A DNA stretch of 64,000 bases, taken from contig JAUCBJ010001863.1 of assembly GCA_032718475.1 (NCBI GenBank), positions 29,916 through 93,915 on the forward strand, written 5' to 3'. This DNA is from Nemertoderma westbladi. Taxonomy: Eukaryota > Animalia > Xenacoelomorpha. Below are positions 33,530-55,149 of this stretch, one piece after another; the stretch's first letter is position 1; each line of letters starts with the position of its first letter. The position numbers and the translations under genes are program-made. The notes below the pieces were generated by a model. It ran no database searches. It was not told the origin of the DNA and saw only the letters and a list, made by a program, of their open reading frames with translations.

Positions 33530-35141
33530 TGTTCGCGGTATTTCAACTTTCCATAACGCGAGTTGAATATTTTTGTATTTATTTAAAATTGATTATTCCG
33601 ATATTACTACTGGGTGCGGGACCATGGGTTTTGGGCACATTCAAGAAACTGGGGGCGATTTATGGGCGAACTTTGGGGCAACTTACAGGGTACGGGAATA
33701 ATTTCATAGTTATAAGGGCCAGGGGGGGATGGAAAATGCAAGCAGTATTCAGGTTAGCCTGAGTACTATTAGGCCCTGGCCAACTTCCTGCTGCCTGTAG
33801 GGGTGGATTTGGTAATGCGCCAGGCCTAAAGGACAAGGACTGCCCTTAGCGGTCCCTGGCCAACAGCAGCCATTACGAGACTGAAAAGAACTCGGACCGC
33901 TGACTGCTTGTGTCAGGGATTTGCGACGGGCACCGACGGCCCCTTAGTAGCCAAGCCGTTCTGGTTCTCGATGATCGTTCCCTTCGGGGTTCGTGAGGGG
34001 TGGAGCGGACACGCGAACGGGTGGCCAACTAACGACTGCCCCCTGACCTAAGCCGTACTGGTTCTCGATGACCGATCCCTTCGGGGTTCGTGAGGGGTGG
34101 GACGGACATGCGAAAGGGCTGGCCACAGGACGGGTTTGACGAGAACTGCCCTTAGCGGTCTCTGGTCAACGGCAGCTACTACGAGACTGAAAAGAACTCG
34201 GAACGCTGACTGCTTGTACTGGGATTTGCGACGGGAACCGACGACAGACCCCTTAGCCAAGCCGTACTGGTTCTCGATGATCGTTCCCTTCGGGGTTCGT
34301 GAGGGGTGGAACGGACACGCGATGGGGTCGAAAGACAAAGGACTAGACTCGACTAGACTCTACTGGCCTACCGACTGTTCGGAGCAGTTTCTCGGCTGCC
34401 GAAGCGACTACGAGCCTGAAACGGACTCGGAAAGCCTAGGTGGTTGGGTTTCTGTGATGAACTGACGGACCCCTAGCCAAGCCGTTCTGGTTCTCGATGA
34501 TCGAACCCTTCGGGGTTCGTGAGGGGTGGAACGGACACGCGAACGGGTCCACCGACACGACAGACTCCTAGCCAAGCCGTACTGGTTCTCGATGACCGAA
34601 CCCTTCGGGGTTCGAGAGGGGTGGTACGGATACGCGACAGAGTCTACCGACTGGACCGACCCTTAGCCAAGCCGTGCTGGTTCTCGATGATCGTTCCCTT
34701 CGGGGTTCGTGAGGGGTGGAACGGACACGCGACAGGGTCGACCGACACCGACACTACGGCACTAAGACTGGGACCGAGGGAAAATCTGGGGAACATTAGG
34801 TAGGCTAAAATTCTGAGCAAACAGTGGGTTATTAAATAATATACTGTAGGGATTTATATTATCGTGTATAATTATTGTGAATATTTGGTGTATATTGATT
34901 TGGGGAAGCCCAAAATTATTCTTAATCAAGTTTCAATGATGTTGAACGGGTTTCAACTATAGGAAGTTACATTAAAGAGTATATCCAACTAATGCAGCTT
35001 TTTATCAACCGCAAACTTGCATCTCAGAAAATATTCCCTCCCCACAATCAATATCCGGTGACTGGCCGGGGCTCGGTGGTCTGTTAAGTCACGTCTCCAG
35101 CATCGGCGTTTTTCCCCCCTGGTGTAGGGATAACGGCAACA
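33530..35141 (+). repeat. 5' LTR
   Basis: TGTTCGCGG...CGGCAACA; appears identical to 46200-47811 by eye, and the ORF-track translations in the two copies are the same. Confidence 0.96.
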
Positions 35142-35392
35142 AAATTAAGAATAATTCACGTGGTTAATTTTGACAGGGTGTCAAAATTAAGAATAATTAC
35201 GGTCAACTTCAACTGGTGGAAGTTGAGAATCCTTCAATACTCTTCAAAAACTCTCTACGTGCTTGCCAGCACCCACTACGAGGAAACTCTGGTATTTGAG
35301 TTGAGACAAAGTCGTGGTTTAATTAATCAGCAAACTCGATCTAACCAACTCGTAGTCGGCAGATCACATATTTGGAGAGTTGTTAACAGGGA

Positions 35393-35584
35393 ATGGAAGT
35401 ATCGATCACACCCATTGATATAATTCAAGTTGAGCCAGGAATCTGGCACGTCGAAGTTGAGGTACAAGGAACGAACGTTGGACGATTCAGGATTACTGTT
35501 CGGGTGGTCCAAGCTGAGTACAATACCTACGAGGAACTGTTTTACGACATCGCGTATCTAGCCATCGACGAGGCGTTACAATGA
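35393..35584 (+). CDS. Small upstream ORF (63 aa) whose stop overlaps the gag start (ATGA)
   Basis: ATG-initiated; sequence pattern suggests beta-strands then an acidic amphipathic helix. TGA 35582-35584 overlaps gag ATG 35581-35583. Confidence 0.45.
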   Translation: MEVSITPIDIIQVEPGIWHVEVEVQGTNVGRFRITVRVVQAEYNTYEELFYDIAYLAIDEALQ

Positions 35585-37767
35585 CAACAAATAACGTATC
35601 CGATACCGACGAGATGGATCACCACACAGACTCGGAAGCCGACGAGGTACCAAACGTCAAGAACATGACCCGTCGGTTAGGGGCTCTTAAAGGCGGAGTA
35701 ACCCGAGCGTATCAACGGATGGAGAAACAACTCAAAGGAGTCAAAACCCCCCTCAATGAGGTACAAACTCAGCTTCAAAGTATCCGAAATATCCTACAGC
35801 GGTACGAAAGAATGATACAGGCGTACCAAGAGCTCGTTCCCCCCACCGATCAGGAAAACTACCCCAAGTTGGAAGAACACGTTGTACATCTAGATGGGTT
35901 CCGCAAACAACACCGGAGGACCCTCAGCCTTGTGAGAGGCTATGAGGAACAGTATTACAAGAGGGCTGACGCGGAATCAGTACGATCCTCCAGCATCAGG
36001 ACAGCAGTACATCGTAAGAGAACGGGGTCCGCTAGAAATCAGCACTCCAGCGCTAGGAGCGAGATATCCGGCTCGGCGCGCAGTTCTCAAGGGGCGCCGC
36101 CACTCCGAGACCAACTGCGAGAACGGAAGGCATTAGCCCTCAAAGCTCGGATGGAAGATGAGTATATTCAACTGCAAGCCGAGCAAGATGTATTAGCCGC
36201 CGAAACACAAAAGCGAGAGGCCGAACAAGCGGCCGAACGGCAGGCCGAACAACGCGAACAGGAGGCCGAACAACATAGACGAGAAGCCGAACGACAGGCC
36301 GAACAACGCAAACAGGAGGCCGAACAACGCGGACGAGAGGCCGAACGAGAGATCGAACAACGTAAATGGGAAGCGGAAATGCGTAAACAACACGCCGAGG
36401 CCCAAGCAATTCTTATCCACAAAAAGAATGCGGATATTGCAAAACTCGCAGAATACGAAGCCGCACTTATAGAACGAGATATTCAACTCTACGAGGACTG
36501 GGAAAGGGATATAGATCAGGAATATGAACCAATTCCGGTACCGGAGTTAGAAAAGTCATTTACACCAACAGCGGCGAAACCTCCGAAACCCGAGATCCCG
36601 CCTACCAAACAGTCTACGCTATCGGCACAAGCCCCGGTGTTCCATCCCCCACCAGCTACGCTAAAGAATGAGGAACCTTATTTCCCATCCAACACCACGA
36701 CAGCGAGTGTACCCAAGTACGAGCCTGAAAGGGACTCGGAACGGGACGCCACTCCCCGATCTAACAACCCATTTACATCCACACCACAAACTCGTAGCCG
36801 CGTCATTATTAAAACTCCACCTATTATTGATCCATCAAGTATGGGAGTGAGTGCCAATAACTATAACCCTCCGAGTCACTCCAGTTCAGACGACGTCAGC
36901 ATCATCCGGGCGTTGGAGAACCGCCTTGCCATGCCTAAGATGGAGATTCGCACCTTCGAAGGAGATCCCGTTGATTACCTCAGATTCAAGAAACGGTTCT
37001 TTGCGCAGATCGGATCAACGGACATAGCCGACGCACAGAAATTGGTATATTTATCGCAATACCTGGGTGACAAACCACGCAGAATTGTTGCATGTTTTGA
37101 AGGAGGTTCTCATGAGGCATACTATGACGCATGGAAAACTCTAGATAAAAGATACGGAAATACCGGAACTATAATTAATAAAACTCTAGAGAGACTGATA
37201 CAGGACGCGGGATCACTAGGGGACCCACAGAACATACAGGAATTCTCCGACTCTATGAAGGATGCCTACTATACTCTGAAACCCTTAAATAAAGAGGACC
37301 AGGTGAACAACATTCTAAACCTCCGACAGATCGCCAAGAAGTTCCCCGGATGGCTACAAAGTAAGTGGGCTTATAAATGTGTAGATCTCCGGCGCAGACA
37401 TCCAGATCGAGATCCTAGCTTCCTTGAAATGTCGGCATTCCTGGACGATATCTCCGAAGCCATGAATGACTCGATGTTTTCAAAACAAAGTCTCGCAAAG
37501 TTGGACGGAATAGAGAGCAACTCCAGGAGTAAGATAACCCCTCCGAAACCGAGATTCCGCCCCCCACCGGTAAGTACGATGGCCATTACCATGGCCGAGG
37601 ATTCCGACGACGAAGACTACGAGGAACCGACATCCGCCGAGGAATGGGCATGTTATCTCGCGAGTTGGGCACCCGAAAGGGAAGGCATCACAAATTCCCT
37701 GCTCTGTCTGTGGGGAGAAACACAAAGTTTCAGTTCGCCGAACTCGTCCCACGCTTCGAGGCGATAA
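35581..37767 (+). CDS. gag: Bel/Pao Gag (coiled-coil plus DUF1759-like capsid region)
   Basis: 728-aa ORF; E/Q/R coiled-coil repeats; MPKMEIRTFEGDPVDYLRFKKRF...KLVYLSQYL...AWKTLDKRYG...KFPGWLQSKW. Confidence 0.9.
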   Translation: MTTNNVSDTDEMDHHTDSEADEVPNVKNMTRRLGALKGGVTRAYQRMEKQLKGVKTPLNEVQTQLQSIRNILQRYERMIQAYQELVPPTDQENYPKLEEHVVHLDGFRKQHRRTLSLVRGYEEQYYKRADAESVRSSSIRTAVHRKRTGSARNQHSSARSEISGSARSSQGAPPLRDQLRERKALALKARMEDEYIQLQAEQDVLAAETQKREAEQAAERQAEQREQEAEQHRREAERQAEQRKQEAEQRGREAEREIEQRKWEAEMRKQHAEAQAILIHKKNADIAKLAEYEAALIERDIQLYEDWERDIDQEYEPIPVPELEKSFTPTAAKPPKPEIPPTKQSTLSAQAPVFHPPPATLKNEEPYFPSNTTTASVPKYEPERDSERDATPRSNNPFTSTPQTRSRVIIKTPPIIDPSSMGVSANNYNPPSHSSSDDVSIIRALENRLAMPKMEIRTFEGDPVDYLRFKKRFFAQIGSTDIADAQKLVYLSQYLGDKPRRIVACFEGGSHEAYYDAWKTLDKRYGNTGTIINKTLERLIQDAGSLGDPQNIQEFSDSMKDAYYTLKPLNKEDQVNNILNLRQIAKKFPGWLQSKWAYKCVDLRRRHPDRDPSFLEMSAFLDDISEAMNDSMFSKQSLAKLDGIESNSRSKITPPKPRFRPPPVSTMAITMAEDSDDEDYEEPTSAEEWACYLASWAPEREGITNSLLCLWGETQSFSSPNSSHASRR

Positions 37768-40700
37768 TGAAACACCGAGGATGCTTCCGGTGTCTTGGAA
37801 CAGGTCACTATGTTCGGGAGTGCGACCAAAGATCATGCTGTACTGTCTGTAACGACCAACGCCATCACACGCTCCTCCACATCCCCGCGAACTTCGATTT
37901 TACTACCCTCCCCTTTCGGATCGAAGCCAGGCGAAGAGGAGAAACAAACCACATCTTCAAAGGAACCCGGACAACCCAACGGAGAGAAACCAACCCGTTT
38001 AAAATCTCCACCGATACACCACAAGTAACCAATATTTCGGCCACGATTAATCTTATAAATCGCCGCTACATGGTTTTCGCAAAGGTAATCCCAGTAAGGA
38101 TCCAAGGAGTCGGCAAATCTTTGACGACACTCGCGTTCCTCGATAACGGGTCTGACGGAACCATCATCGACCGGGATTTCCTCGAGCAACTCGGCCTAGA
38201 ATATGAACCTTGTAAACGGCCCATACAAACCATCACCGATAACAGAGAGGTAGAGTCCGGGGAGGTACAACTCCAGATGGAAGGAGTGATGAAGGGCTAC
38301 GAAACGGCTAAGTTAACCATCAAGAACGCCTTGGTACACACAGACCTCCGGGTGCGGTTCCGACAATCAGCCGAGTACGCCCCCCTCATACAATTAGACC
38401 GAGACGATGTAGACCTGAGGTGTCCGCAGTTGGACGTGAACCGTATCACCCTACTGATTGGACTTGATACACCGGAACTACACATCCCCACCGGAGATAT
38501 CGCTCGATCTATAAACCAGGATGATGGATTCTATGCTGAACGAACAATAATGGGATGGACACTCTGCGGCATTAAGGAGGAAACTACGGACACCTATACC
38601 TACCTTCCTAAATGTCAGATTAAAGAGAATGTAACCTCTGTGGGTTATTGCTCAGCTTCAGATCTTGACGAGGATTTGTTTCTGGAAACCGAGAAAACCC
38701 AACGAGAGATGACGAAATATTTTAATTTGGAGACCCAGGAGTTCGCGGAAAAGGACGAAAACCCATCCGAAGAGGACCAATATTGTATGGACGTTCTCGA
38801 CCAGGCCACGTTTAAAGACGGACATTGGTGTTCACCTATGTTATGGAAGGATCCAAACAAACCAATGGCAAACAACGCCAGCATGGCACTTAGGCGACTT
38901 AAAGGGATTCTACGCCGGCTGAATGACCAACCCGAGATAAAGGAGAAATATAATACCGTAATCCAAGGATATCTCGATGATGGATTAGCAGAAATGGTAC
39001 CACGGAATGAACTGCAAGGTGGTGAAAGAACATATTATCTCCCAACCCACTATGTAGTAGAAGCCCGCAAAGGTGGGAAAATCCGAGTGGTAAATGATGC
39101 TGCCGCTATGTACCAGGGCGAATCCCTAAACAGTCAACTTTACACGGGGCCCAACATATATAGCACACTCATTGGCGTATTGATCAGGTTCAGGGAAAAC
39201 CGGGTAGCATTCACCTGTGACATCAAGGCCATGTTTCATCAAGTTCGTACGTTACCAAGAGACTCGGACTGTCTACGTATCCTATGGACGGATAAAACGC
39301 TTACTCAACAGGAGATTAGCCAACTCACGATAAAGGACGTAGACGTAATGCGTATGGTCGTCAGGATCTTCGGCGCTAAGGACTCGCCGGTAGCATGCAG
39401 TGACATGCTAAAGAGGACGGCAACTATGTGCGAAAACGAGTTCCCTCCAACTGTCATAGAAACAATTCGACGATGCTTCTACGTGGACGACGGATGCGCC
39501 GGCGCGGATAATGTGGATGAGGCATATCGGCTAGCAATGGGGATGGTAGAATGTCTAAAGAAAGGAGGGTTTCCGCTCGTGAAGTTCAGATCCCACGACA
39601 AAACACTTATGGAAAAGTTTCCGGAGGACATCCGGCTGGAAAATAACAAAATGTATTCGGAGGATGTGGAACATCGTGTACTTGGGATTGAATGGGACAT
39701 AGAATCAGACGAATTCATCTTCAAGTATAAACCCCTACCCAAGCCTATGACAAAAAGGGGATGTTTGTCGATAAAAAGCGCCATCTTCGACCCACTAAAT
39801 TTCATATCTCCAGTAACCTTGGCCGGAATGAACCTGATTAAGGAAATGTGGATAGAAGGACTGGGATGGGACGAAGAGCTCCCCCCATACCTCAGCGTCA
39901 AATGGAGAAAATGGACGGAGCAGCTCGAACACCTACATCTTATGCGGATACCTAGACCGTTCTTCCTCGATAAGTTGCCCACCGATATCTTCCAGCTCCA
40001 CACCTTTTCGGATGCTTCGAATACCGGAATCGGCGTAGTCACCTTCCTACGGAGACTAAGTAACGATGGAAACGGCGATACAAGCTTCTTATTCTCCAAA
40101 GCAAAGACAGTATCCGGGGAATTCGTAGCAACGATCCCGAGACTCGAGCTACAAGCTGCAGTTTGGGCAGTAAGACAGAATCGCATGGTCATGCGGAACC
40201 TACGGATCCCCATAGAATCTCAACACTTCTGGGTAGATTCGAGTATAGTTCTCTATTATCTCCACTCTCCATCACGGCGTCACACCACGTTTGTTGCAAA
40301 CCGAGCCACGGAGATTAAACAGTGTACCGGCCGAGAACAGTGGCATCACGTGAACGGGAAGGAAAACCCAGCGGACTTATCAAGCCGAGGCGCCACCCCA
40401 AAACAACTCGGTAAAAGTAAACTCTGGCTTACAGGCCCGGAATTCCTACGGCAGCCACAATTAACATGGAGTACCCGATTCGACCCCGAGCTCGATAGCG
40501 GAAAATACTCCGAGGACGATAAAGAGATCCGTAAAATCCATCGAAGCAACGCGGTGGAAATTTATAGTTGTCTGACTGAGCCTGCAAAGGACTCGGGCAG
40601 GCACTATAACGTCGCGACGATCACCCAACTAGCGGCGTCTTTACATCGGTTGATCGAGCGAACTTCATCCATGAGACGGCTCGTCCACCACGTTATAACC

Positions 40701-42185
40701 CTTCGCAACTTCCTACGGTGGAAAAACAACAAACCGATAGTTCAACGGAATATACAAGAACTCATTATCGCGGAGAAGTGTATTGTTAGATATGTCCAGA
40801 AAGAAAGTTTCCCCGATGAATGGGAACAACTTAGTGCGGGCAAAACGTTGAAACCGGACAGCCCAGTCTACCAACTGAGACCAATGATGGGAGAGGACGG
40901 ACTGATCCGACTGAATACCCGGATGGCAAACGCCCCGGTCGAATATGAGGTTAAATACCCGGCGCTTCTGCCCGGAACGTCGACACTAGCTAAGCTATTA
41001 ATTCTACAATGTCACGAGGACAACCACCACGCAGGACAGAATTGGATTATAGCTAATATAAGACAAAGATATTGGATCACCCACATCCAGCCACTGATCC
41101 GGAAAGTGTTGAAACGTTGCTTCACCTGCAGACGTTACCTAGCGCCACCAATCACCCAAAAGATGGCCGACTTACCAGCCACCCGTCTACAAGCGGATTC
41201 CCCACCATTCTACGTCACCGGAGTGGACTGTTTCGGACCGTTCACGGTTATTGAACGACGATCCAACATCAAATGCTGGGGAGCCATCTTCACCTGCCTA
41301 AGGTCTAGGGCAATTTACCTAGATATCGTGGTAAATCTGACACAACACGCATTCATCAACGCTCTGCGTCGGTTCGTGGCGAACAACGGGACATGCCGCC
41401 ACATGTATTCCGATAATGGTACAAACTTTGTGGGAGGAGAAAGAGAACTTAGAGAGGCGATCGAGGGATGGTTTACCGATAACACCGCATCCCAAGTCTG
41501 GAAGGAACACCAGATACAGTGGCACTTCCAGACCCCCTTAGCACCCCATACGAGCGGGGTATGGGAGAAACTGATCGACCTAGTGAAACGATCCATGCGC
41601 GTCGCTCTAGGCGACACCCGGGTAACCCATGACACCCTCCGCACAACATTCTGCGAGATCACGGCTACCCTGAACAACCGACCCATTGTCCCTATCCGCG
41701 ACGACCCCACAGACCTGGAGCCCCTCACTCCTAACCACTTACTGGGGAGACCCAAAACCCACGTTCTCCCGGAAACCATGTTCCCGGATCCCAACGAGAT
41801 CGCGAAACATACAAACTGGAAAAAGGCCCAAGCGTTGGCAGCGCATTGGTGGAGAATTTGGGCCCAGGAGTACCTCATAACCCTCCGGACCAGGAGGAAA
41901 TGGAACAACACCTACCGGAACGTCGCAGTTGGCGACATGGTACTAGTTAAAGAAGATCTCAAAGACCGCGTTCACTGGCCTGTGGCGCGGGTCGTGACCA
42001 TACACCCAAGCAAAGACGGACTTGCGAGGACTGTGACGATACGAACGAAATCGGGCCACTACCAACGCCCCATCCAGAAGCTGTGCCTTCTTGAAGGCAA
42101 TGACAGTGGTGATTCTACAAGAGGTGATAAGTTCCCTACTACGGATCCTACTGTGGACATTGGTGACAATTATAAATGCGTTTAA
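37644..42185 (+). CDS. pol: Bel/Pao Pol: Zn knuckles, aspartic protease, reverse transcriptase, RNase H, integrase
   Basis: CFRCLGTGH..C..C..C...HHTLLH; protease LDNGSDGT; RT DIKAMFHQV and FYVDD; Pao RNase H FSDAS and TIPRLELQAA; integrase HHCC, GVDCFGP, YSDNGTNF and GVWEKLI. Confidence 0.96.
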   Translation: MGMLSRELGTRKGRHHKFPALSVGRNTKFQFAELVPRFEAIMKHRGCFRCLGTGHYVRECDQRSCCTVCNDQRHHTLLHIPANFDFTTLPFRIEARRRGETNHIFKGTRTTQRRETNPFKISTDTPQVTNISATINLINRRYMVFAKVIPVRIQGVGKSLTTLAFLDNGSDGTIIDRDFLEQLGLEYEPCKRPIQTITDNREVESGEVQLQMEGVMKGYETAKLTIKNALVHTDLRVRFRQSAEYAPLIQLDRDDVDLRCPQLDVNRITLLIGLDTPELHIPTGDIARSINQDDGFYAERTIMGWTLCGIKEETTDTYTYLPKCQIKENVTSVGYCSASDLDEDLFLETEKTQREMTKYFNLETQEFAEKDENPSEEDQYCMDVLDQATFKDGHWCSPMLWKDPNKPMANNASMALRRLKGILRRLNDQPEIKEKYNTVIQGYLDDGLAEMVPRNELQGGERTYYLPTHYVVEARKGGKIRVVNDAAAMYQGESLNSQLYTGPNIYSTLIGVLIRFRENRVAFTCDIKAMFHQVRTLPRDSDCLRILWTDKTLTQQEISQLTIKDVDVMRMVVRIFGAKDSPVACSDMLKRTATMCENEFPPTVIETIRRCFYVDDGCAGADNVDEAYRLAMGMVECLKKGGFPLVKFRSHDKTLMEKFPEDIRLENNKMYSEDVEHRVLGIEWDIESDEFIFKYKPLPKPMTKRGCLSIKSAIFDPLNFISPVTLAGMNLIKEMWIEGLGWDEELPPYLSVKWRKWTEQLEHLHLMRIPRPFFLDKLPTDIFQLHTFSDASNTGIGVVTFLRRLSNDGNGDTSFLFSKAKTVSGEFVATIPRLELQAAVWAVRQNRMVMRNLRIPIESQHFWVDSSIVLYYLHSPSRRHTTFVANRATEIKQCTGREQWHHVNGKENPADLSSRGATPKQLGKSKLWLTGPEFLRQPQLTWSTRFDPELDSGKYSEDDKEIRKIHRSNAVEIYSCLTEPAKDSGRHYNVATITQLAASLHRLIERTSSMRRLVHHVITLRNFLRWKNNKPIVQRNIQELIIAEKCIVRYVQKESFPDEWEQLSAGKTLKPDSPVYQLRPMMGEDGLIRLNTRMANAPVEYEVKYPALLPGTSTLAKLLILQCHEDNHHAGQNWIIANIRQRYWITHIQPLIRKVLKRCFTCRRYLAPPITQKMADLPATRLQADSPPFYVTGVDCFGPFTVIERRSNIKCWGAIFTCLRSRAIYLDIVVNLTQHAFINALRRFVANNGTCRHMYSDNGTNFVGGERELREAIEGWFTDNTASQVWKEHQIQWHFQTPLAPHTSGVWEKLIDLVKRSMRVALGDTRVTHDTLRTTFCEITATLNNRPIVPIRDDPTDLEPLTPNHLLGRPKTHVLPETMFPDPNEIAKHTNWKKAQALAAHWWRIWAQEYLITLRTRRKWNNTYRNVAVGDMVLVKEDLKDRVHWPVARVVTIHPSKDGLARTVTIRTKSGHYQRPIQKLCLLEGNDSGDSTRGDKFPTTDPTVDIGDNYKCV

Positions 42186-42469
42186 ACCCTTCTCATCATG
42201 TTGACAAACTCTTTTTAAACTGTGATTTATCGACAACGAATTATGGACCCCCTTTAAACCAACTGTAACCACGCATGGTATTTGTGTTTCCTCGTGTGTT
42301 ATGTGGAGTCCAGCGTCACCCTGCAGATGTTTCGGCTGACGCAGGGTCGTTTATGCATTGTTTACCCTGATTTTGGTCATCAGGACCTACGATATTGGAT
42401 TATTGGAAATGGAAAAGATTTGAAGTGGAATTCATTGTATTCATTGCAGTATGTTATGTTGTCCGTTGC

Positions 42470-42890
42470 GTGGGTAGTTCGGGGCGTAGGCGGTGTAACG
42501 AGTCCAGCTGTAGATCCCGGATTGCCGCGCAACACCCCCCTCTATCCCGTTATTCTGGTGGGTCCATGGTGCATCCACATGACTTCGACGATAGAGGGTT
42601 TTATGTTTCTCAGTCGCGTTATTCTGGTGGGACCGTTACGTGGATTTTGGGGCGTAGGCGGTGTAACGAGTCCAGCTGTAGATCCCAGAATGTTGCGTAA
42701 CCCCATCCCACATGACTTCGTCGACTGAGCTTTATGTTGTTGGGAGTGTTATTCTGGTGGGTCCCTGGTGCATCCACGTGACTTCACTCCCAGCGTCTTC
42801 ATTGTCCGTTACGTGCGCAGTTTGGGGCGTAGGCGGTGTAACGAGTCCAGCTGTAGATCCCAGATTGCCGCGTAACACCCCTTCCACGAC
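42470..42890 (+). repeat. Three ~170-bp imperfect tandem repeats between pol and ORF3
   Basis: GGGGCGTAGGCGGTGTAACGAGTCCAGCTGTAGATCCC at ~42481, ~42649 and ~42824. Confidence 0.85.
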
Positions 42891-43432
42891 AAAGATTAAC
42901 CAAAGAAAATGATTGAATATAGTTGGAAACGATGAAAAGGATCAGACAACTCTACTATAAACCTGAATGATGACGCGTATACTGATGAAAATGTAATGAT
43001 GCGCACCCTGGTGCTGCGCTTATAACCAATGATGATAGCCGGGGGGCTATAAACCCAAATGATGATGTGGAAATAAATAAATGTGAAATAAATGGTGGAA
43101 CTAAATGTTGAAATATACGTGGAAATAAATGAAATAAGATGAAATAATAATGAAATGAAAAAAGACAAAAAAAAGGTATAAAAAAGGTCAAAGAAAAGAA
43201 TTAGAAAAAAGAAAAGGACAAAAAAGTCATAAAAAACTGGTTGGATATTATGTATAGCTATAGTAACTGTAAATGCTGAATGTATTAGCAATAAGATGAT
43301 AGATGCCTATATAGCAATGTTATTAATAAACTGAATTAAATAAAAAACTGAATTATTCTGCTATCGCTATAGTTTCAGACTTTCTGGACTTATAATTAAC
43401 TGATCTAATTTGTAACGGATATAATCGTAAAT

Positions 43433-46033
43433 ATGGACCCAAATCGCCAAATTATCGGCGAATTACGTAACACGATAGATCTACTGGAATATTCGCAACC
43501 CGGATCCCCTGACTTTGATACAAATTGGAGCACCCTGCTAAATGAGAACGTGCGAGTCATTAAATTCACCGGGCGAGAGGGACCGGATTCTAAGAATCTA
43601 CGAGCCCTCCGGTTAGCTGATGCTAGTACGAGACTGAAAAGAACTCGGAACGCAAAGGCAACCGGAGGGGACGATTCGTCGTTTTGGGAAACGTTCCGGC
43701 AGAGCGTCTACAGATCCCGATGTTTGATCTACGACAACGAGGGAAACGCGACGCCCACCTCGAAAGCGATTACGTTGGCGAGATGTCAAAGTTTCGTCGA
43801 CGACAAGAGTACGTACCTCGCCCACTGGGGAAACCTGTCGGAGTGTACGGCGACGCTTCGAGAGGAACGCGTATCGATTATCCAAAACCGAGACGACTAC
43901 CAAGAAAAGTACGGGGCGAAAGAATACGGTCGATCCTTAGTCGTCGTCCTCGGAACCCTGGACGGTTTGGTACTGGTGTGCCGAATATTCCCGACACCCA
44001 GACAGGAAGTGCAGGCAGCCGGAGCGATCTGGTTGCTGCCTCCGGAAATCCAAAAGATCCTCTTCGACTTCGACGTCATTAAAATCGGGTCGGATATCAA
44101 GGCGGACGTCCGGAACGACTACGCGAACGCCCCTGCAGGAAGAAACCGACGAGACGACCTCAACGCCCTTAGCCATTGCATCGACACTCAAACGCTACTA
44201 GCCTGGTTACGATTCGCCGAGTTCATGCGAGGATTCCAAGAGGTGAGACCGACGAAATCCGGGATCGGCTACCTCGCTGTGCTCAACGGCGGTATCGACT
44301 TCAAACCCCAGAAATTCCGGGACTATAATAAAATATACGGTGGATACCCGGGATTGGAAATAAAGAGCGAGCGAGAGGGTCGATGGAAGGACGTTGATCG
44401 GAAGTGGACGATACACCAAAGGTGGGAGAATCCTGATCGACGGAACTACGTTTACGTCGTTATGGAGTGCTACACCGTCGCTAAGTTTATCTGTAAAACT
44501 CTCGATAACCTTATTACGGCGGTCCCCCTTTCCTTCGTCGACTACGACTGGAATGAGGTTATAAACCACGCGTTTAAAGCGGTCGAGAACATTACACCGG
44601 GAGAATCGAAAACGCCCGCCGTTATCGATTCCTGGGACGAGAGCGGACCTTACGACATCCCTACGATTACCGAACTTCTCGGTGCGGAGGAGCCTCTGAT
44701 CTCCTCGGAAGGGGAAGAGATATGGCTAAACGAGGGTGTTCTACTCTCCACCCCGAAGCGACAACTCGAGCCGGAGGCCGCGTATGGACCGGCCGCCAAA
44801 CGGGTTGCCTCGGCCGAACCGATGAAGAGAGCAGGCGTTTACACCCCACGCGGCTCCGGTAGCCCCGCGAGGGAGGTAGCCACTACAGCTGCATTGAGCG
44901 ACTTCGGCGACATATGCCAACGGTTATCCCCGTATCCTTTCCCGGGTGGCGAAGATTGGTCGTCGGAGATTCCGAGTACCAGCCACCAACGGACCCGCGC
45001 AGCGATACTGATCGAGGAGGGCCCCAGCGATGCGCCGACCCCCGACGATCTCCTCGGTATCCCTCCGTCGAAAACCCCGGCACCTCTTCGCCGACCAGCG
45101 GTGGCTACTACACCCGCCGTTCCTCAGGACCCTATGCGACTAACCCGTTGGTACGCCGAGCAAACTGAATGGATCCACCGCCAGAAACGGTCATCCGAGT
45201 TGAGACCAGCGGGACACAAAGAAGGTTATCGGAGCGAGAACCTATTACGCAAAAGCCTAGCATTCCGCGGGCTACCGACCACCGAGAATATTCCGAAGAG
45301 CGACCGACGACTCGAATACTACGTCGGCGTCCCGATTCCGATATTTCCTGGTCGAGAGATACAGTTGGAGGTATGCGGCGACTGCGGTTCGGAGCAGTGC
45401 CCACGCAGCAGAAGGAATCGGGTTACCGATTCTTGCCTCCAGCTCCTCGGGATACTCTATTGCCCATACTGCGCGACATCGGGCCACGACGTTTCCGTCT
45501 GCCCGATCCTTTATAACCTCTGCACCACGTGCGGTTTCCGTGGACATTCCTCTAGCCCCCGCTGCTATATCAAATGTCCAACCAAAGACGTTACCGCTAT
45601 GGGCAATATGGTCATGTTTGAGACATACGCAAACAGCCACTTAAAGACCAAGGTTCGGAGAAACGCTCGGAATATCGCGCAGGAGATGGCGTGCGGATAT
45701 TTCTCCTTCCCGGAACGCCTCCACACGTCGGCCACGCTACCTTTCCATTACGTGGATCTGCTACTGAGCGCCGGATTATTCGGTCCATTTGAAGTCATTA
45801 GACGATTATACTCGTATAAAGAGGAGTTCGGTGACGGAGAATGGTTCCTAGAGGCACGCAAATCTGAGTTGGAGAGACGAACCGACATGATCCCGATGCC
45901 TTCGAAAGGAAGAGCCGCCAGGAGACAAGCCGAAGCGTTACTCACGATGGATGTTGACGCTCCTCTACCAGCCATAGCGATCGATGAGAGTCGACGGGCG
46001 AAGAGACGAAAGGCGTATCAGAGAAAGAAATAG
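43433..46033 (+). CDS. Accessory ORF3: DEDDy/WRN-like 3'-5' exonuclease-fold domain (divergent catalytic motifs), disordered linker, CCHC zinc knuckles, basic C-terminus
   Basis: Uninterrupted 866 aa. LLPPEIQKILFDFDVIKIGSDIKAD, CIDTQTL, SGIGYLA and W...YVYVVMECY follow the WRN-exo motif order. CPYCATSGHDVSVC is CX2CX4HX4C and CTTCGFRGHSSSPRC is CX2CX4HX5C. No signal peptide or TM helix seen. Confidence 0.75.
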   Translation: MDPNRQIIGELRNTIDLLEYSQPGSPDFDTNWSTLLNENVRVIKFTGREGPDSKNLRALRLADASTRLKRTRNAKATGGDDSSFWETFRQSVYRSRCLIYDNEGNATPTSKAITLARCQSFVDDKSTYLAHWGNLSECTATLREERVSIIQNRDDYQEKYGAKEYGRSLVVVLGTLDGLVLVCRIFPTPRQEVQAAGAIWLLPPEIQKILFDFDVIKIGSDIKADVRNDYANAPAGRNRRDDLNALSHCIDTQTLLAWLRFAEFMRGFQEVRPTKSGIGYLAVLNGGIDFKPQKFRDYNKIYGGYPGLEIKSEREGRWKDVDRKWTIHQRWENPDRRNYVYVVMECYTVAKFICKTLDNLITAVPLSFVDYDWNEVINHAFKAVENITPGESKTPAVIDSWDESGPYDIPTITELLGAEEPLISSEGEEIWLNEGVLLSTPKRQLEPEAAYGPAAKRVASAEPMKRAGVYTPRGSGSPAREVATTAALSDFGDICQRLSPYPFPGGEDWSSEIPSTSHQRTRAAILIEEGPSDAPTPDDLLGIPPSKTPAPLRRPAVATTPAVPQDPMRLTRWYAEQTEWIHRQKRSSELRPAGHKEGYRSENLLRKSLAFRGLPTTENIPKSDRRLEYYVGVPIPIFPGREIQLEVCGDCGSEQCPRSRRNRVTDSCLQLLGILYCPYCATSGHDVSVCPILYNLCTTCGFRGHSSSPRCYIKCPTKDVTAMGNMVMFETYANSHLKTKVRRNARNIAQEMACGYFSFPERLHTSATLPFHYVDLLLSAGLFGPFEVIRRLYSYKEEFGDGEWFLEARKSELERRTDMIPMPSKGRAARRQAEALLTMDVDAPLPAIAIDESRRAKRRKAYQRKK

Positions 46034-46189
46034 TGGATCGGGATATTCCAGGAACATTTATCGAACATTTATTTTTATACAAACTCTAGGCCAAATTAAT
46101 TAAAAACTATGCAATATTAAATTTGGGTTTTTTATATTGGGAATGACCTACGCAAACTCAATCGACCGACAGACTTCACGAAGGTCATT

Positions 46190-46199
46190 GGGGGGGGAC
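46190..46199 (+). other. Polypurine tract
   Basis: GGGGGGGGAC immediately before the 3' LTR TG. Confidence 0.85.
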
Positions 46200-47811
46200 T
46201 GTTCGCGGTATTTCAACTTTCCATAACGCGAGTTGAATATTTTTGTATTTATTTAAAATTGATTATTCCGATATTACTACTGGGTGCGGGACCATGGGTT
46301 TTGGGCACATTCAAGAAACTGGGGGCGATTTATGGGCGAACTTTGGGGCAACTTACAGGGTACGGGAATAATTTCATAGTTATAAGGGCCAGGGGGGGAT
46401 GGAAAATGCAAGCAGTATTCAGGTTAGCCTGAGTACTATTAGGCCCTGGCCAACTTCCTGCTGCCTGTAGGGGTGGATTTGGTAATGCGCCAGGCCTAAA
46501 GGACAAGGACTGCCCTTAGCGGTCCCTGGCCAACAGCAGCCATTACGAGACTGAAAAGAACTCGGACCGCTGACTGCTTGTGTCAGGGATTTGCGACGGG
46601 CACCGACGGCCCCTTAGTAGCCAAGCCGTTCTGGTTCTCGATGATCGTTCCCTTCGGGGTTCGTGAGGGGTGGAGCGGACACGCGAACGGGTGGCCAACT
46701 AACGACTGCCCCCTGACCTAAGCCGTACTGGTTCTCGATGACCGATCCCTTCGGGGTTCGTGAGGGGTGGGACGGACATGCGAAAGGGCTGGCCACAGGA
46801 CGGGTTTGACGAGAACTGCCCTTAGCGGTCTCTGGTCAACGGCAGCTACTACGAGACTGAAAAGAACTCGGAACGCTGACTGCTTGTACTGGGATTTGCG
46901 ACGGGAACCGACGACAGACCCCTTAGCCAAGCCGTACTGGTTCTCGATGATCGTTCCCTTCGGGGTTCGTGAGGGGTGGAACGGACACGCGATGGGGTCG
47001 AAAGACAAAGGACTAGACTCGACTAGACTCTACTGGCCTACCGACTGTTCGGAGCAGTTTCTCGGCTGCCGAAGCGACTACGAGCCTGAAACGGACTCGG
47101 AAAGCCTAGGTGGTTGGGTTTCTGTGATGAACTGACGGACCCCTAGCCAAGCCGTTCTGGTTCTCGATGATCGAACCCTTCGGGGTTCGTGAGGGGTGGA
47201 ACGGACACGCGAACGGGTCCACCGACACGACAGACTCCTAGCCAAGCCGTACTGGTTCTCGATGACCGAACCCTTCGGGGTTCGAGAGGGGTGGTACGGA
47301 TACGCGACAGAGTCTACCGACTGGACCGACCCTTAGCCAAGCCGTGCTGGTTCTCGATGATCGTTCCCTTCGGGGTTCGTGAGGGGTGGAACGGACACGC
47401 GACAGGGTCGACCGACACCGACACTACGGCACTAAGACTGGGACCGAGGGAAAATCTGGGGAACATTAGGTAGGCTAAAATTCTGAGCAAACAGTGGGTT
47501 ATTAAATAATATACTGTAGGGATTTATATTATCGTGTATAATTATTGTGAATATTTGGTGTATATTGATTTGGGGAAGCCCAAAATTATTCTTAATCAAG
47601 TTTCAATGATGTTGAACGGGTTTCAACTATAGGAAGTTACATTAAAGAGTATATCCAACTAATGCAGCTTTTTATCAACCGCAAACTTGCATCTCAGAAA
47701 ATATTCCCTCCCCACAATCAATATCCGGTGACTGGCCGGGGCTCGGTGGTCTGTTAAGTCACGTCTCCAGCATCGGCGTTTTTCCCCCCTGGTGTAGGGA
47801 TAACGGCAACA
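46200..47811 (+). repeat. 3' LTR
   Basis: Direct copy of 33530-35141. Confidence 0.96.
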
Positions 47812-47859
47812 ATTTGGCTGTCTGTTACATAATGTATAGCCTATATGCATAATATTATT

Positions 47860-49611: not shown

Positions 49612-52600
49612 TTAAGTATTCCCGTAGATTGATGCAACATGTAATGCGTTGAAGAACTCTTTCAGTTTTTCGATACGGCGTTTTCGGGACAACGTCATTT
49701 GTGAGAGAGTTTTCTTAATAAACTCTACTTTGTATATATCTGATACGCTGACCTCCCCAGGCCTAATCCTCTCCAATATCTGCCGTTTGCTGTATTGTGA
49801 TGTGACCAAACTCTTTAATTCGGGGAGAGGTCCAAGTTTCGTTGCTTTTTCATATGCACTGCAGAGTCCCGGATATCGAACTCCATTGACCACCTTCGAG
49901 AGGAATGAACAAGATACCAATGTGTAGTGTATTGGATAGTTCGGACAATCGGTTATTCTTAATATGGTGGAAAGATTCGCTACACACATTGTTGTTATCA
50001 AATCCTGCACATTGAGCGAGGACAGCAGCACCGGGTTGTTTATATAACTACCAAGACCAAGCACCGATCTAAGCTTTCCTCTATAAAAAGCGTTGAGTTT
50101 GTCCGCCTCTACATTGGTGAGTGATCCCAGTAAATGTTTACATCGGTATAAAAAAGCGGGAAGAGCAATCGCTTTCCATAAGATACTAAGTGTTTCTATG
50201 TCTAACATCTCAATAGTCCAGTTGTTCTTCCAAAACATCCGTGCAATTCCAGTAAGTGCCTGTGTACACCTCTGTATCCCGTCTTTAATTCTCCTGTTAA
50301 AAGTGACACCCAGGAATGTTAGATTTGTATTCATCGGTACAAGCGTGCCACAAATATCAAGAAATGTTGGAATATTGCTGCTATGTGTGGCCCCGCAGCA
50401 GATCCAATGCGTCTTTGCTGGTTCTAGAGACAATTTAATCTCCCTAGTCTCCATTGCAACTATATCGGCCATTTGTTCTAATTCCATGGGACACGTTGAC
50501 ATTAGGATAATATCGTCGGCATAATTAAGACAACCAATCCATAAATTGAGAATTTTGCACCCCAATTTTGATTTTTCAAGACTAGTGAATATATTTGTTG
50601 TATATATATTAAATAATGCCGGTGACAACAAAGAACCTTGCTTCACTCCAATGTACATTGGTAAACCAATATTGGATATGGAGTCATCAAATTTCAAATA
50701 TATCATTGTATGCATGTAATAACTGTAGAGGGCCAGTGTTATATGTGGGTTTAAAATAGAGCTAATCCTCTCAAAAAGTATCTCATAATCCACCATGTCG
50801 AATGCAGAAACAATATCCAATTGACAAATGTAAATGGGTGTGCAATCCTGCCTATGGCGTTCTATTATCTCCATCATAGCTGAGAGAATCAAATCAGCTC
50901 CAATTTTCTTTTTATAACCAAGTTGATACTGACTAACGTATTTCGATTCTGTACCTAGGAAATTGTGAAGAATTACTCCCTCAAAAACTTTGGCAAACAT
51001 AGATAAATTTGAAATTGGGCGATATGACTTTCCCAGTTTTGGGTCACGACTATTCCCTTTGTAGAGATGTGTAATTATTGTATCTCCAAAGCTGTTAGGT
51101 ACTTTTCCCAAGTTGAAACAAGAGTTGATTATTTGTGCAAGTGCGGTACAGATGGCGTCATTTCCTGTCGAATAAATGAGATGCTCGGCTGTCAGAGACA
51201 TAATGTCGGGGGCCTTCCCCGTTCCCAGCTTTCCGATCACCATTTTTATTACATTCTTGGATATTGTTGGAGCTGTAGTTTTTTTACACGAGCCAATAAG
51301 TTTCTCCTGAATATTTGTTTGTCCCTTTGAGGTTTTTGAACTATTACTGAAGCGCTTTATTATTTCTTCCCGTGCTACCGCGGGTATAGGATTCTTCCCC
51401 CTCCTTTTACGGTTAAAATGCTTCCAGAAATGTTGTGGTCTGTATCTGTAGCTACTAGCCGCTTTCAGAATTGCCTTTCTCACCGAGTCTTTATTATTTC
51501 TATTTGTAAGTCTTCTTAAAATCTTTTTGGCTTCTTTTAGGGCCTCGGAATTTTTCTGTGTTTTTACTTTGTTGTGATCAGTCTGATGTTTTAATTTCTT
51601 GATTGTATCCAGATGCTCTGAAACTTTTCTAATATGGTGTCTCAGTCTCGAAGATCTAGTACGACTCCCTCCGTTTCGCAGAGGTCGGGTGGGTATTTCT
51701 TCTTGAGCAGATTGTAATATAATCTTCTGCACTCTATTGCTGTAACTGTTTAATTCCTCTTCAGTCCACTCCAATTCATTTGGACTGAGTGTTTGTTGCA
51801 GATCGGCTAGCTGGGCGTTTAATTTAACTGAGTATGACTCCACTTGTTTCTTAGATGCACCTTTCCAATTAGGGGCTCGAGTTCTTTCACACTTTCGAAA
51901 TTCTATCTCCGATTTTATGATGTGATTGCTATTTTCTGTTTCTCTGGCATGTTGGGAATTGATACATAAGAGTATTGTTACTGGGGTGTGATCTGCAAAG
52001 TTATTAGCATCATCCATCTCATATATTTCGCCCTTGATCAGTTTATCTTGCAATTCAATGGGAGCAATAATATGGTCGATATAAGACACTCCAGTCTCCG
52101 CACGATAGAATGTGAAATATGGACCTTTACATTGTGTCAATGTATCCAAAGCTGTCATACCGTTTGCTAAAAGAAAATTGTTGAGGTCGATGCCCCGAGC
52201 TGTTGGAGTTGATCTGCAGTACCGATTACCCTGTAGTGGCCCGAGGTCTGCATTCGCATCTATTAGTAAAATCGGGGTGTAATTGCTGTTTTCCTCCATC
52301 ACAGATGCTATGTTGCCAAGAAAAGTTTGATATTCAACCTTCTTTTTGCTGACATCTGGGGCATATCCGGAAATAAAGAGATAATCTTCAGCACTTCCAG
52401 CCATGGTTACAGTTGCTCCACAGAATGAACCTTCACCAGCTATTGCACACACCTCTGAACATATGGTCCTTCTAATGAATATAGCAGTGCCACCTATTCC
52501 TCTTGAATTGCCCAGATTGTCCATCAAGGGACTTACAGAATATTCACAATAGAATTTCTCATTATGTTTAGTGAGGAGTGTCTTACATTCCATTTCATTG

Positions 52601-52809
52601 AGCCAATGCTCTTGTATCCCAAGAACGTCGATTTCCTGCAATAGCTCATCTATATAGTGTTCACTACTGTTAAATCCAAAACAGTTGTATGTACCAACTC
52701 TTATTTCCCCTTTGTTAGTTTGTTCGTGTTTGACACCCTGTTTTTGTTTACGCTCATAAGTTCGGTTTGCTTTATTGGTCTTGATCTTCCTTGTCTTTCT
52801 ACTAAACAT
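49612..52809 (-). CDS. LINE ORF2: apurinic-like endonuclease plus reverse transcriptase
   Basis: APE motifs TYNC, GIQEHW, DANA, SYIDHI and ADH; RT motifs YRPIS, QLGY, DIVSAFD, GVKQGSLLSPALFNIY, YADD and FLG. Confidence 0.95.
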   Translation of the reverse strand: MFSRKTRKIKTNKANRTYERKQKQGVKHEQTNKGEIRVGTYNCFGFNSSEHYIDELLQEIDVLGIQEHWLNEMECKTLLTKHNEKFYCEYSVSPLMDNLGNSRGIGGTAIFIRRTICSEVCAIAGEGSFCGATVTMAGSAEDYLFISGYAPDVSKKKVEYQTFLGNIASVMEENSNYTPILLIDANADLGPLQGNRYCRSTPTARGIDLNNFLLANGMTALDTLTQCKGPYFTFYRAETGVSYIDHIIAPIELQDKLIKGEIYEMDDANNFADHTPVTILLCINSQHARETENSNHIIKSEIEFRKCERTRAPNWKGASKKQVESYSVKLNAQLADLQQTLSPNELEWTEEELNSYSNRVQKIILQSAQEEIPTRPLRNGGSRTRSSRLRHHIRKVSEHLDTIKKLKHQTDHNKVKTQKNSEALKEAKKILRRLTNRNNKDSVRKAILKAASSYRYRPQHFWKHFNRKRRGKNPIPAVAREEIIKRFSNSSKTSKGQTNIQEKLIGSCKKTTAPTISKNVIKMVIGKLGTGKAPDIMSLTAEHLIYSTGNDAICTALAQIINSCFNLGKVPNSFGDTIITHLYKGNSRDPKLGKSYRPISNLSMFAKVFEGVILHNFLGTESKYVSQYQLGYKKKIGADLILSAMMEIIERHRQDCTPIYICQLDIVSAFDMVDYEILFERISSILNPHITLALYSYYMHTMIYLKFDDSISNIGLPMYIGVKQGSLLSPALFNIYTTNIFTSLEKSKLGCKILNLWIGCLNYADDIILMSTCPMELEQMADIVAMETREIKLSLEPAKTHWICCGATHSSNIPTFLDICGTLVPMNTNLTFLGVTFNRRIKDGIQRCTQALTGIARMFWKNNWTIEMLDIETLSILWKAIALPAFLYRCKHLLGSLTNVEADKLNAFYRGKLRSVLGLGSYINNPVLLSSLNVQDLITTMCVANLSTILRITDCPNYPIHYTLVSCSFLSKVVNGVRYPGLCSAYEKATKLGPLPELKSLVTSQYSKRQILERIRPGEVSVSDIYKVEFIKKTLSQMTLSRKRRIEKLKEFFNALHVASIYGNT

Positions 52810-55149
52810 ACTGCCCGTAAGTTCTTCTGGTCGAAACGGTATCTTTATAGTTGCATCTGTAACGCGGATTTCTTGAAGTATAATTTATCCACTCTCTGCA
52901 GTGGATTCCATATGGCCAAAAGTCCCCATTTAACACCACATCTAAATCATCTGTGTTGATGGTGGCTCTCATTGACTTGGAGTTGTTGTATGAACGTGCA
53001 GTTATATTATCCACACTAATGCCTCTATCGTATAGGTAATCAGACAGGTCAATCTCATAGTTATCTCTCTTTATTCCGGTGATATATATAGTTGATGTGG
53101 CTTTCGTATCTGCACCTTTCAGCATTCTTTGGCGTCCAAACACATTTGAGCTTATATAATTCGTCCCATAATGGTCATCTTGCAGCCGTTTGATGTCTTG
53201 TGGATTAGGACCCCCTGGATGGTCAAGTGTATTTATCTTGTAATCTGGTAACCTGCCCACTTGCTCGGGCAAATCTCTACTCGATTTCGGTGCAACTTCA
53301 GGTTTGGGTATACCTTTATAAGCGGGTCCCGTGTACAACTTGTTATATGTGATTGTCTCCTTGACACTGTGTTCATTTGAGTTTATCTGTTTTCCTTCAT
53401 CTCTTCTATCTATAAGAGGGTTGTGTTCAGAATCTAATTGGTCACAAACCGTTGATGACAATACATCAAATCTGTTTCTCAAGAAATGTGATTTACATGT
53501 TGAATGGTTATCTGGATTTGGGTATGAGAGCGCATCAGTATGATCCATCCTGCTTTTACGCTTTCTAAATCGTTTTTCCCAGATTCCTGTTTTCAATGAA
53601 TCATCCACAGTTCCATATTCCCCTTCAACCTGATAGGCATGATTGTTTATAATATCATCATCACTTAGGCTGTCTATTACAACAAATCTTTCAGAAATAT
53701 CGACATTGCGAGATTTGCCATATCCATGCTGGTCAGTTTCATTATGAATTTTGTTATCCTCTACTTCTTTTTTGTATTGATCATCTTTCTGTATAGATTT
53801 TTCAATGTTGGCGAGTGTCGATTCGAGTACTAGGCGACAATGCCTCTCATGACTTAGATCATCCTTGAGCTTTGAGTTTTCTTCCACAGTTTGGGAAAGT
53901 TCCTGTTCTAGCTTGCACATGCGAGCTTGTAACGATGCTGTAACTGATATGAGATCACGCTGTAGACTCCCGAGACTGATAAGATCCGCATCGTATTTGG
54001 GATTAGGCCTAAAAAGACGTTTCAAGCAGGATTCATAAATCTTTTTATCTTTACAACATTGAAAGAGCTCATATACGTCTGTACTTAGTTCAGCACGGGA
54101 ACCACGTTTCTTTAAATGTAATGTAGCCATCTGAATGGGATTTAGCAAGGGTTTCACCAGAGTAAAAATATGATCTCGAAGTTCTGAGAGTTTTTCGATT
54201 GTTTGACCTCCAAGTTGTTTGATGGCTTCCTTTTTTGGCAGATACAACGCTTTGGGATACTCTATCACAACGTTATTGAGATTTTCGCCTGATTTACCAC
54301 TAACATTGATAAGGCCTGGACCACAGTTGACCACTTGTACAGGTTTTGACTCATCGGTGTTTAATATTTTCATTTGATCCAGGCATTCCGATAGCCATTT
54401 TCTGCTTGAGGAACTATCAAAATGTATAGCAGGAAGCGCCGGTTTGTCCTGGGCGATACTTACTGCAGTGAGACAGAGGTAGAGACCACAGTCATACCCA
54501 TTTGTTTGCTTGGCATAATTACAGTAACGTGCATCCGCTTCCCAACTTTTATTTGCAACATTGTTTAAGCTCCATGGACTGTGGGAATCGATCTTGTTTA
54601 GCAGATTGATAATTCCGAATGTAGTATAATTTGGCATATTGTTTCCTAGAGAATCAACACAACAAACAGTTCGACGTTCACAATCAGCTACATGAAGGAC
54701 GAAATGAGAATTGACACACTCTGGAAAAAACATGAGCCTTGGCTTCACTTTTGTGTGTCTGCCAATGTACCTAGGAGCGATGTATTTTATCGCACTTAAT
54801 TCATCGTAACTGGTTAATCCTTGTCCCTTGCCTTCTTTAAGTGGCCTTGACTCATTGAGTTTGTATGCTAGTTGACTGGAGATAGCAGCAGTGTCACTGA
54901 AATCACGTTCTAATATTCCAAGGAATCCATCGATAATGACATTACTCAACCATGATTCACATTTCAAAATGCTCCTCCTTTCTTCGTTTGTTGTGACAAC
55001 AATCCCAGGTTTATAATCTACAGACAAGTGCTCTAGATAAACGCGAATTTCCTTCGATCGATCATTACCTAGTTTGCTAGGGCTGTTTGGAAATACCTCC
55101 ACAAACTCATGAATTATTTGGCTTGCTTGTTTACGTTTACGCTTGCTTG
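52802..55149 (-). CDS. LINE ORF1 (5'-incomplete): Ulp1/SENP C48 protease domain, coiled coil, C-terminal RRM-like domain
   Basis: WLSNVIIDGFL, SHFVLHVAD, VDSL and QTNGYDCGLYLC give the Ulp1 His/Asp/Gln/Cys set. Coiled coil in the middle; IYITGI...FWPYGIHCREW typical of LINE ORF1 C-termini. The frame is open upstream of the GTG at 55102 up to the element boundary. Confidence 0.85.

Follow-up and report, generated by a model that had tools for sequence, protein, structure and literature searches.

What kind of protein is encoded behind pol in a Bel/Pao retrotransposon when the gene in the env slot is not an envelope gene? This question is raised by a locus of the xenacoelomorph Nemertoderma westbladi, in a stretch of 64,000 nucleotides (assembly GCA_032718475.1, contig JAUCBJ010001863.1, positions 29,916 to 93,915, forward strand) that is called the window here and to which coordinates refer unless another locus is named. 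One long terminal repeat (LTR) retrotransposon of Bel/Pao type occupies 33530-47811 of the window (14,282 bp, with LTRs of 1612 bp). Within it, an intact sense open reading frame (ORF) of 866 amino acids (aa), ORF3, lies between the pol stop at 42185 and the polypurine tract (PPT), exactly as a first-pass annotation had described. That annotation, made from the DNA letters alone, took ORF3 for a WRN/EXD-like exonuclease fold with zinc knuckles, perhaps a pseudo-nuclease, and for an undescribed system. In the analysis reported here, ORF3 is well supported as representing a new family of accessory genes that is deeply conserved in Bel/Pao elements. Taken jointly, the reading frame and its slot after pol, its placement in a family, the recurrence of that slot in four lineages, purifying selection among sister copies and the presence of residues at all catalytic positions are practically certain.

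The ORF3 family and its linkage to pol

Two word-based homologue searches with ORF3 were empty. An exhaustive comparison with 1.84 billion representatives by phmmer yielded 10 matches at E<=0.001, the sequence pattern of the C-terminal Cys/His module gave 14 metagenome loci from 128 candidate stretches, and a profile of the same module gave 10 proteins, several of which are genes of these loci. Conserved in most homologues are an N-terminal domain and the C-terminal Cys/His module. No named cellular protein and no informative name was present among the homologues, and no relatives of ORF3 or Pol were found in the viral contigs searched.

The association of ORF3 with Bel/Pao pol, assumed in the first-pass annotation, recurs in other loci. 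In 8 of the 14 loci, the window Pol has a match that precedes the ORF3 homologue and shares its strand; a Pol profile, which itself included L007, L010 and L011 (L006 being nearly identical to L007), did so in 10 of the 14, with no match on the opposite strand. Peptidase_A17 and DUF5641 are present in L007 and L010, the two loci tested, and L012 has LTRs of 407 bp at 94% identity. The window and three pol-linked lineages make up four lineages that share this slot, and since they are only 26-32% identical in Pol, the ORF3-after-pol arrangement is old and not a one-off capture.

Unusual family members were also seen. At L001 (8070-11133), an intact homologue is located between direct repeats 74-76% identical, with no pol within 10 kb upstream; this is possibly a non-autonomous element retaining only the ORF3 gene. 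In the homologue at L003 (124-2022, P0003), the Cys/His module is present twice and the exonuclease domain is limited to its first third. At L014 (3-3488), about 690 unexplained residues precede an exonuclease domain that has the textbook D-E-D-Y-D set.

Selection among sister copies

In four DNA-type runs of one organism, 59-70% of the words of ORF3 are present. Two of these runs have contigs (11,903 and 5,827, at 80-100% identity) in every one of the 30 bins into which the region between the leader and the ORF3 end was divided, a coverage that fits a multi-copy family. Among 40 of the 41 sister-copy substitutions over 43760-44120, 30 are silent, 9 replace an amino acid and 1 introduces a stop, compared with a silent share of 31.9% expected from the same mutation spectrum (p 3e-8; rough omega 0.16). 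Because of this excess of silent changes, it can be said that ORF3 is under purifying selection among sister copies, and the constraint presumed in the first-pass annotation is borne out. Over the whole element, the 40 best-supported of 1,054 rows include silent changes in 10 of 13 cases for gag, 17 of 18 for pol and 5 of 6 for ORF3. Joints skipping 0.7-6.3 kb were also observed in the DNA runs, in sister copies over 35150-46195, and point to internally deleted derivatives of the element family.

The exonuclease fold

Searched alone, the ORF3 protein (P0001) gave no meaningful Pfam or PDB sequence match. Its DJ-1 matches in the PDB (E 0.06-0.7) were taken as chance. A profile of 12 family sequences matched human EXD2 (E 2.6e-6), the RNase D of Trypanosoma brucei (TbRND; 1.7e-5) and, weakly, WRN (0.27) in the PDB, and the TbRND match spans both the exonuclease and the zinc domains. 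Among five locus ORF3s scanned against PF01612 (3'-5' exonuclease), that of L011 passed (26.1 bits against a cut-off of 23.6, covering positions 9-170 of 173). A profile built without the window sequence matched ORF3 at aa 86-355 with an E of 2e-22. Two AlphaFold models were used, starting at aa 101 and aa 134, with predicted local distance difference test (pLDDT) values of 41 and 61. With the pLDDT-61 model, EXD2 was the best Foldseek match (E 7e-3), and in a wide structure search the titles of 50 of 50 rows name DnaQ-like nucleases, or polymerases that include such a nuclease (best Z 8.8), Egalitarian being among the rows (Z 6.8). A DnaQ/RNase H-like DEDDy fold is thereby supported for the ORF3 domain by homologue profiles and models, and the WRN/EXD-like assignment stands by way of the family and not of the single protein. 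No specific parent can be named, because the structure Z-scores of 7-9 are effectively tied.

The active site

The profile built without the window sequence places the ExoI motif at D101-x-E103, followed by a long insert. This register has the highest score of all windows in ORF3 (z 5.6; reached by 0 of 2000 shuffles), lies inside the leave-one-out range of the homologues and is also given by MAFFT once aa 81-133 are included. The position is outside 43790-44510, the stretch in which the first-pass annotation had placed the domain; the WGNLSE taken there for an eroded ExoI is not the motif. An earlier MAFFT reading, in which the ExoI strand was deleted, was ruled out by the window-free profile, the block score and the re-cut alignment. 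The ExoII Asp (D225) and the ExoIII YxxxE (Y341/E345) had been read correctly, and the other quoted motifs were found at their places.

All four acidic positions and the Tyr of the catalytic set (D101, E103, D225, Y341, E345) are thus filled in the window copy, contrary to the pseudo-nuclease part of the annotation and to the loss of acidic residues that marks pseudo-nuclease adaptors of the EXD1/Maelstrom type. The four acidic residues are kept in 12 of 20 family sequences, across lineages about 20-30% identical. At ExoIII, these 12 members have YxxxE in three cases (the window, P0002 and P0004), YxxxD in four and HxxxD in five. The last pattern, with His for Tyr and D-E-D-D kept, marks a sub-lineage comprising L010 (7178-10045), L011 (5529-8450) and P0018-P0020. 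Since the active site looks complete, with Glu in place of the last Asp, an active nuclease seems likelier than a pseudo-nuclease for the ORF3 of the window copy.

The loop after ExoI has 73 aa in ORF3, compared to 13-48 in 14 homologues. Within the insert, aa 144-158 resemble the N-terminal strand of the family (a score matched by 1 of 2000 shuffles), and for this reason the insert probably came from a local duplication or permutation. No indels are listed among sister copies over 43760-44120.

The remainder of ORF3 and the envelope question

ORF3 consists of a DEDDy-type exonuclease domain, a linker, a Cys/His module and a basic tail, the KRRK of which begins at aa 857, as had been noted. 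In the C-terminal part, one canonical knuckle, CX2CX4HX4C (aa 677-690), is followed by CX2CX4HX5C (aa 697-711). Because the last Cys of the latter does not belong to the columns that are invariant in a family alignment of 12 rows, this part is a family-specific Cys/His module and not two standard knuckles; the first of the two knuckles in the annotation stands and the second does not. The profile of the module had no sequence match in the PDB and none in Pfam above the cut-off. The family-profile knuckles weakly resemble those of nucleocapsid and Lin28 (E 0.01-0.1).

By hydropathy, the N-terminus of ORF3 is not hydrophobic and contains no signal-like segment. The highest 19-residue Kyte-Doolittle window, at aa 168, reaches 2.08, a membrane-helix-like value, and by homology corresponds to the predicted beta2-beta3 hairpin. 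An envelope protein was rejected accordingly, as in the first-pass annotation, with neither signal peptide nor C-terminal membrane anchor seen by hydropathy and with this hairpin as the sole hydrophobic window.

Structure of the element

The layout is that of Bel/Pao elements, with TG...CA LTRs and a PPT ahead of the 3' LTR (Table 1). Pao-specific Pfam models (DUF1759, protease, Peptidase_A17, Integrase_H2C2, DUF5641) were found in gag-pol in the order protease, reverse transcriptase (RT), RNase H and integrase. RVT_1 had no match to the window Pol itself; the RT region aligns at 27-30% with L007 and L010, themselves weak RVT_1 matches. Typical ranges in the Belpaoviridae, which are descriptive and not diagnostic, are 4.2-10 kb for the element and 0.2-1.2 kb for the LTR (PMC8742986), and the window element exceeds both.

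Table 1. Features of the Bel/Pao element in the window
Feature	Position	Strand	Details
5' LTR	33530..35141	+	1612 bp, TG...CA ends; 100% identity to 3' LTR
Six LTR hairpin repeats, ~85 nt	33941..34751 (5' LTR); 46611-47421 (3' LTR)	+	Constant apex capped by a UUCG loop; basal stem varies
gag (DUF1759)	35581..37767	+	Pfam PF03564, E 2e-15
pol frame (protease, RT/RNase H, integrase)	37533..42185	+	Peptidase_A17 6e-38, DUF5641 3e-29, Integrase_H2C2 1.5e-8
Spacer between pol and ORF3, 1.25 kb	42186..43432	+	Hairpin repeats, then A/T-rich leader
Three spacer hairpin repeats, ~70 nt	42464-42534, 42634-42702, 42807-42877	+	
Second spacer hairpin type	e.g. 42537-42602, 42740-42795	+	
ORF3, 866 aa	43433..46033	+	Intact ORF; family homologues
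DEDDy-type exonuclease domain (aa ~81-362)	43673..44518	+	Profile without window sequence, EXD2 match, structure search
ExoI D101-x-E103 (L-I-Y-D101-N-E103-G)	43733..43741	+	Best of all windows, profile, MAFFT
Insert between beta1 and beta2, ~50-60 aa	43745..43927	+	Contains segment aa 144-158
ExoII D225	44105..44107	+	
ExoIII Y341-x3-E345	44453..44467	+	Glu for Asp, like P0002 and P0004
Pro-rich, poorly conserved linker	44519..45352	+	33 Pro in 278 aa
Cys/His module and helical tail	45353..45748	+	CxxC...CxxCx4Hx4CPxLxxxCxxCxxxGH...F..A..G..T...WG; 11 invariant columns in 12 rows
Basic C-terminal tail, putative nuclear localisation signal	46001..46030	+	
PPT, G-run	46190..46198	+	Between ORF3 and 3' LTR
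3' LTR	46200..47811	+	100% identity to 5' LTR

The gag and pol frames overlap at 37533-37767 in different reading frames, and a search for a slippery site of XXXYYYZ type found none; the window copy is therefore probably broken at the gag-pol junction. Among the ten TGG sites listed behind the 5' LTR, none was recognised by eye as a tRNA-Arg or tRNA-Gly primer-binding site. No target-site duplication was found at 33525-33529 versus 47812-47816, although the LTRs are identical; inter-copy recombination, deletion or an assembly join are possible causes. The left flank is satellite, with about 24 copies of a 416-bp unit from ~23430 to 33529 that end at the 5' LTR, and the right flank does not resume it. 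In addition, 32 coding bases near the 5' end of ORF3 (43622-43653) match the LTR at 97% (34175-34206 and 33874-33900), suggesting that LTR and ORF3 exchanged sequence in one direction or the other.

Two further elements are present in the window. An intact LINE-type ORF of 1089 aa with endonuclease and RT lies on the minus strand (49612-52884). A second, decayed Bel/Pao element at 57099-64000 has a gag-like region (31% identical to the first, E 4e-26) and a protease fragment, and neither RT nor integrase was found in it. Behind these, at 63306-63503, a six-frame comparison of the window with the ORF3 exonuclease profile shows weak similarity to the final third of that profile (E 2e-4). This element is probably what remains of a further family with ORF3 in this genome.

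Hairpin repeats in the LTRs and the spacer

Shuffled sequences fold less stably than the LTR hairpins (z -2.0 to -3.7 for three of the six, folded singly) and than the five spacer hairpins folded (z -2.2 to -4.5). Covariation in the LTR hairpins is weak, with two-sided changes in 4 of 29 pairs, which 44 of 500 shuffles equal. An Rfam scan of the hairpins gave no family, and a single RsmY match was judged to be chance. In 6 of 6 LTR hairpins, GAUGA stands on one side of the UUCG-capped stem and (U/A)GAG on the other. This pattern could form a kink-turn or box C/D-like motif in place of the 5-nt bulge of the minimum-energy fold. For ORF3, these hairpins are candidate ligands or barriers and nothing more.

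Comparison with known systems

Juno and Vesta are Gypsy-like LTR elements and do not belong to Bel/Pao. DEDDy exonuclease ORF3s have been described in the env slot of these bdelloid rotifer elements, shared with Athena/Terminon retroelements (PMC5408684). As in the window, ORF3 of Juno and Vesta is a separate frame after pol with an RNase D/WRN-like domain, one Asp-to-Glu change and no transmembrane or coiled-coil region. The changed position differs (DEED in Juno/Vesta, D-E-D-E in the window), and no separate C-terminal knuckle module is described in the text and legends covered, only a Cys-His-Cys motif in two families. The rotifer genes were judged to be recent captures, whereas the Bel/Pao ORF3 spans four deep lineages with measurable purifying selection. 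RNA 3'-processing, silencing and pseudo-nuclease RNA binding have already been voiced there as guesses (PMC5408684).

TbRND (PDB 7C42/7C45), a cellular protein, likewise combines an N-terminal DEDDy domain with a C-terminal CCHC-type zinc module, both of which match the family profile. Without its zinc domain, TbRND neither binds RNA properly nor cleaves it efficiently, the C-terminal knuckles binding RNA and feeding it to the active site, and its overexpression depletes guide RNAs (PMC7797062). It differs in having four tandem canonical CCHC fingers and a short linker; ORF3 has one canonical knuckle, which is part of a longer Cys/His module separated from the exonuclease domain by about 280 aa. 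The exonuclease domains of EXD2, WRN, Nibbler (Mut-7), EXD1 and Egalitarian, which are the best profile and structure matches, belong to host genes with other domain partners. Dada DNA transposons also carry an intact DEDDy exonuclease; there, however, it is inserted inside the DDE transposase, and action on DNA ends was proposed (PMC3706591). Belpaoviridae with env-like genes share the layout LTR-gag-pol-third gene-PPT-LTR with the window element, and env-like genes are the only third genes listed for them in the ICTV profile (PMC8742986), in contrast to the nuclease/zinc protein found here.

The rotifer and Dada cases are cited in PMC6431247, PMC3706591 and PMC6338049, and the word 'exonuclease' is absent from the passages of PMC3118150 that were covered. 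No report of a DEDD exonuclease in Bel/Pao was among the entries listed by the literature search, which covered a minority of subscription journals and neither Repbase nor GyDB. The claim of an undescribed system is thus too strong, DEDDy ORF3s in LTR elements being known as such; not found in print were their occurrence in Bel/Pao, the fusion to a Cys/His module and the depth of conservation.

Possible functions of ORF3

As the best explanation of ORF3 as a whole, we tentatively favor an active, RNase-D-like 3'-to-5' RNA trimmer directed against host small-RNA silencing. A metal-dependent 3'-5' activity on RNA is rather probable, judging by the residues and the TbRND architecture. That the substrate is host small RNA or unmethylated precursors is a looser suggestion from analogy, and a doubtful one. 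The DEDDy domain would trim RNA from 3' to 5' with metal, the zinc module would grip single-stranded RNA as in TbRND, and trimming of host small RNAs or their precursors would weaken silencing of the element. That unrelated elements (Juno/Vesta, Terminons, Dada) each captured such nucleases suggests a task aimed at the host and not one tied to a particular replication chemistry. A more specific version, in which an ancient Bel/Pao lineage encodes a TbRND-like anti-silencing nuclease that destroys intermediates of PIWI-interacting RNAs (piRNAs) and small interfering RNAs while the LTR and spacer hairpin arrays shield or license its own RNA, is decidedly unlikely.

Several points weigh against this explanation. 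Mature piRNAs have a 2'-O-methyl 3' end, are held in Piwi and resist such nucleases. Eight of the 20 family sequences are degenerate or partial, with at least one catalytic residue lost, and since they keep the Cys/His module, catalysis is not a universal trait of the family. In the window copy, Glu replaces Asp at ExoIII, and a large insert adjoins the active site. The structure models omit the ExoI strand, the better one drew on homologues and is not independent proof, and Foldseek found nothing for it at E<=0.001. The 14 loci are not independent but represent about five lineages, three of them pol-linked; of the four loci in which pol was not found, L003 and L014 offer no space for it upstream, and L001 and L005 do but gave no match. 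Moreover, small RNAs still map to the bdelloid elements that carry such ORFs, these elements show no clear gain in copy number, and a self-silencing role is considered conceivable in the same paper (PMC5408684).

The degenerate members would be accounted for if ORF3 were mainly an RNA adaptor, of Egalitarian/EXD1-like or Rev-like kind, that binds the repeated hairpins of the element and so serves the export, localisation or packaging of its RNA, catalysis not being required. Six hairpin repeats per LTR, at least five in the spacer and two after the ORF3 of L011 agree with such a role, as do the basic tail and the structural match to Egalitarian, which reads a localisation signal via its exonuclease domain (bioRxiv 10.1101/2025.08.03.668247). 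However, the four acidic residues are kept in the window copy and 11 others despite the low identity of their lineages, no short repeats were found in L007, L008, L010 and L013 (the contigs may miss LTRs), and hairpin sequences differ between elements. The adaptor role is considered rather unlikely.

The apparently complete active site would equally suit action in cis on the element's own nucleic acid, through RNA 3' trimming up to hairpins, primer clearing, or editing and proofreading of cDNA ends made by the error-prone RT. The nucleocapsid/Lin28-like character of the knuckles could allow co-packaging, the element is 14.3 kb long against 4.2-10 kb in its family (PMC8742986), and 3'-end processing has been proposed for the bdelloid ORFs and Dada. 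Nevertheless, most Bel/Pao elements replicate without ORF3, which is a separate ORF with a tail resembling a nuclear localisation signal; catalysis was lost in several lineages, and L001 has the gene without nearby pol. We regard this role as unlikely.

A recently captured host gene or neutral passenger is highly improbable and already largely refuted: codon usage differs from that of gag (r 0.17; pol 0.52) and two loci have no detectable pol, but the recurrence of the slot in four lineages that are 26-32% identical in Pol, the silent excess among sister copies and the absence of any named cellular homologue oppose it.

Implications

Because the gene is conserved in four lineages whose Pol proteins are less than one third identical, the Bel/Pao family has a second, old kind of cargo besides env-like genes, a nuclease-plus-zinc accessory gene. 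The repeated capture of DEDDy nucleases by mobile elements thus extends beyond rotifers. Should the more specific version given above be true, ORF3 would be an enzymatic suppressor of small-RNA defence in an animal retrotransposon. Unlike the rotifer cases, this family offers evidence of selection, natural variants that appear active or dead, and candidate RNA targets, and for these reasons what such nucleases do for a transposon becomes testable with one purified protein.

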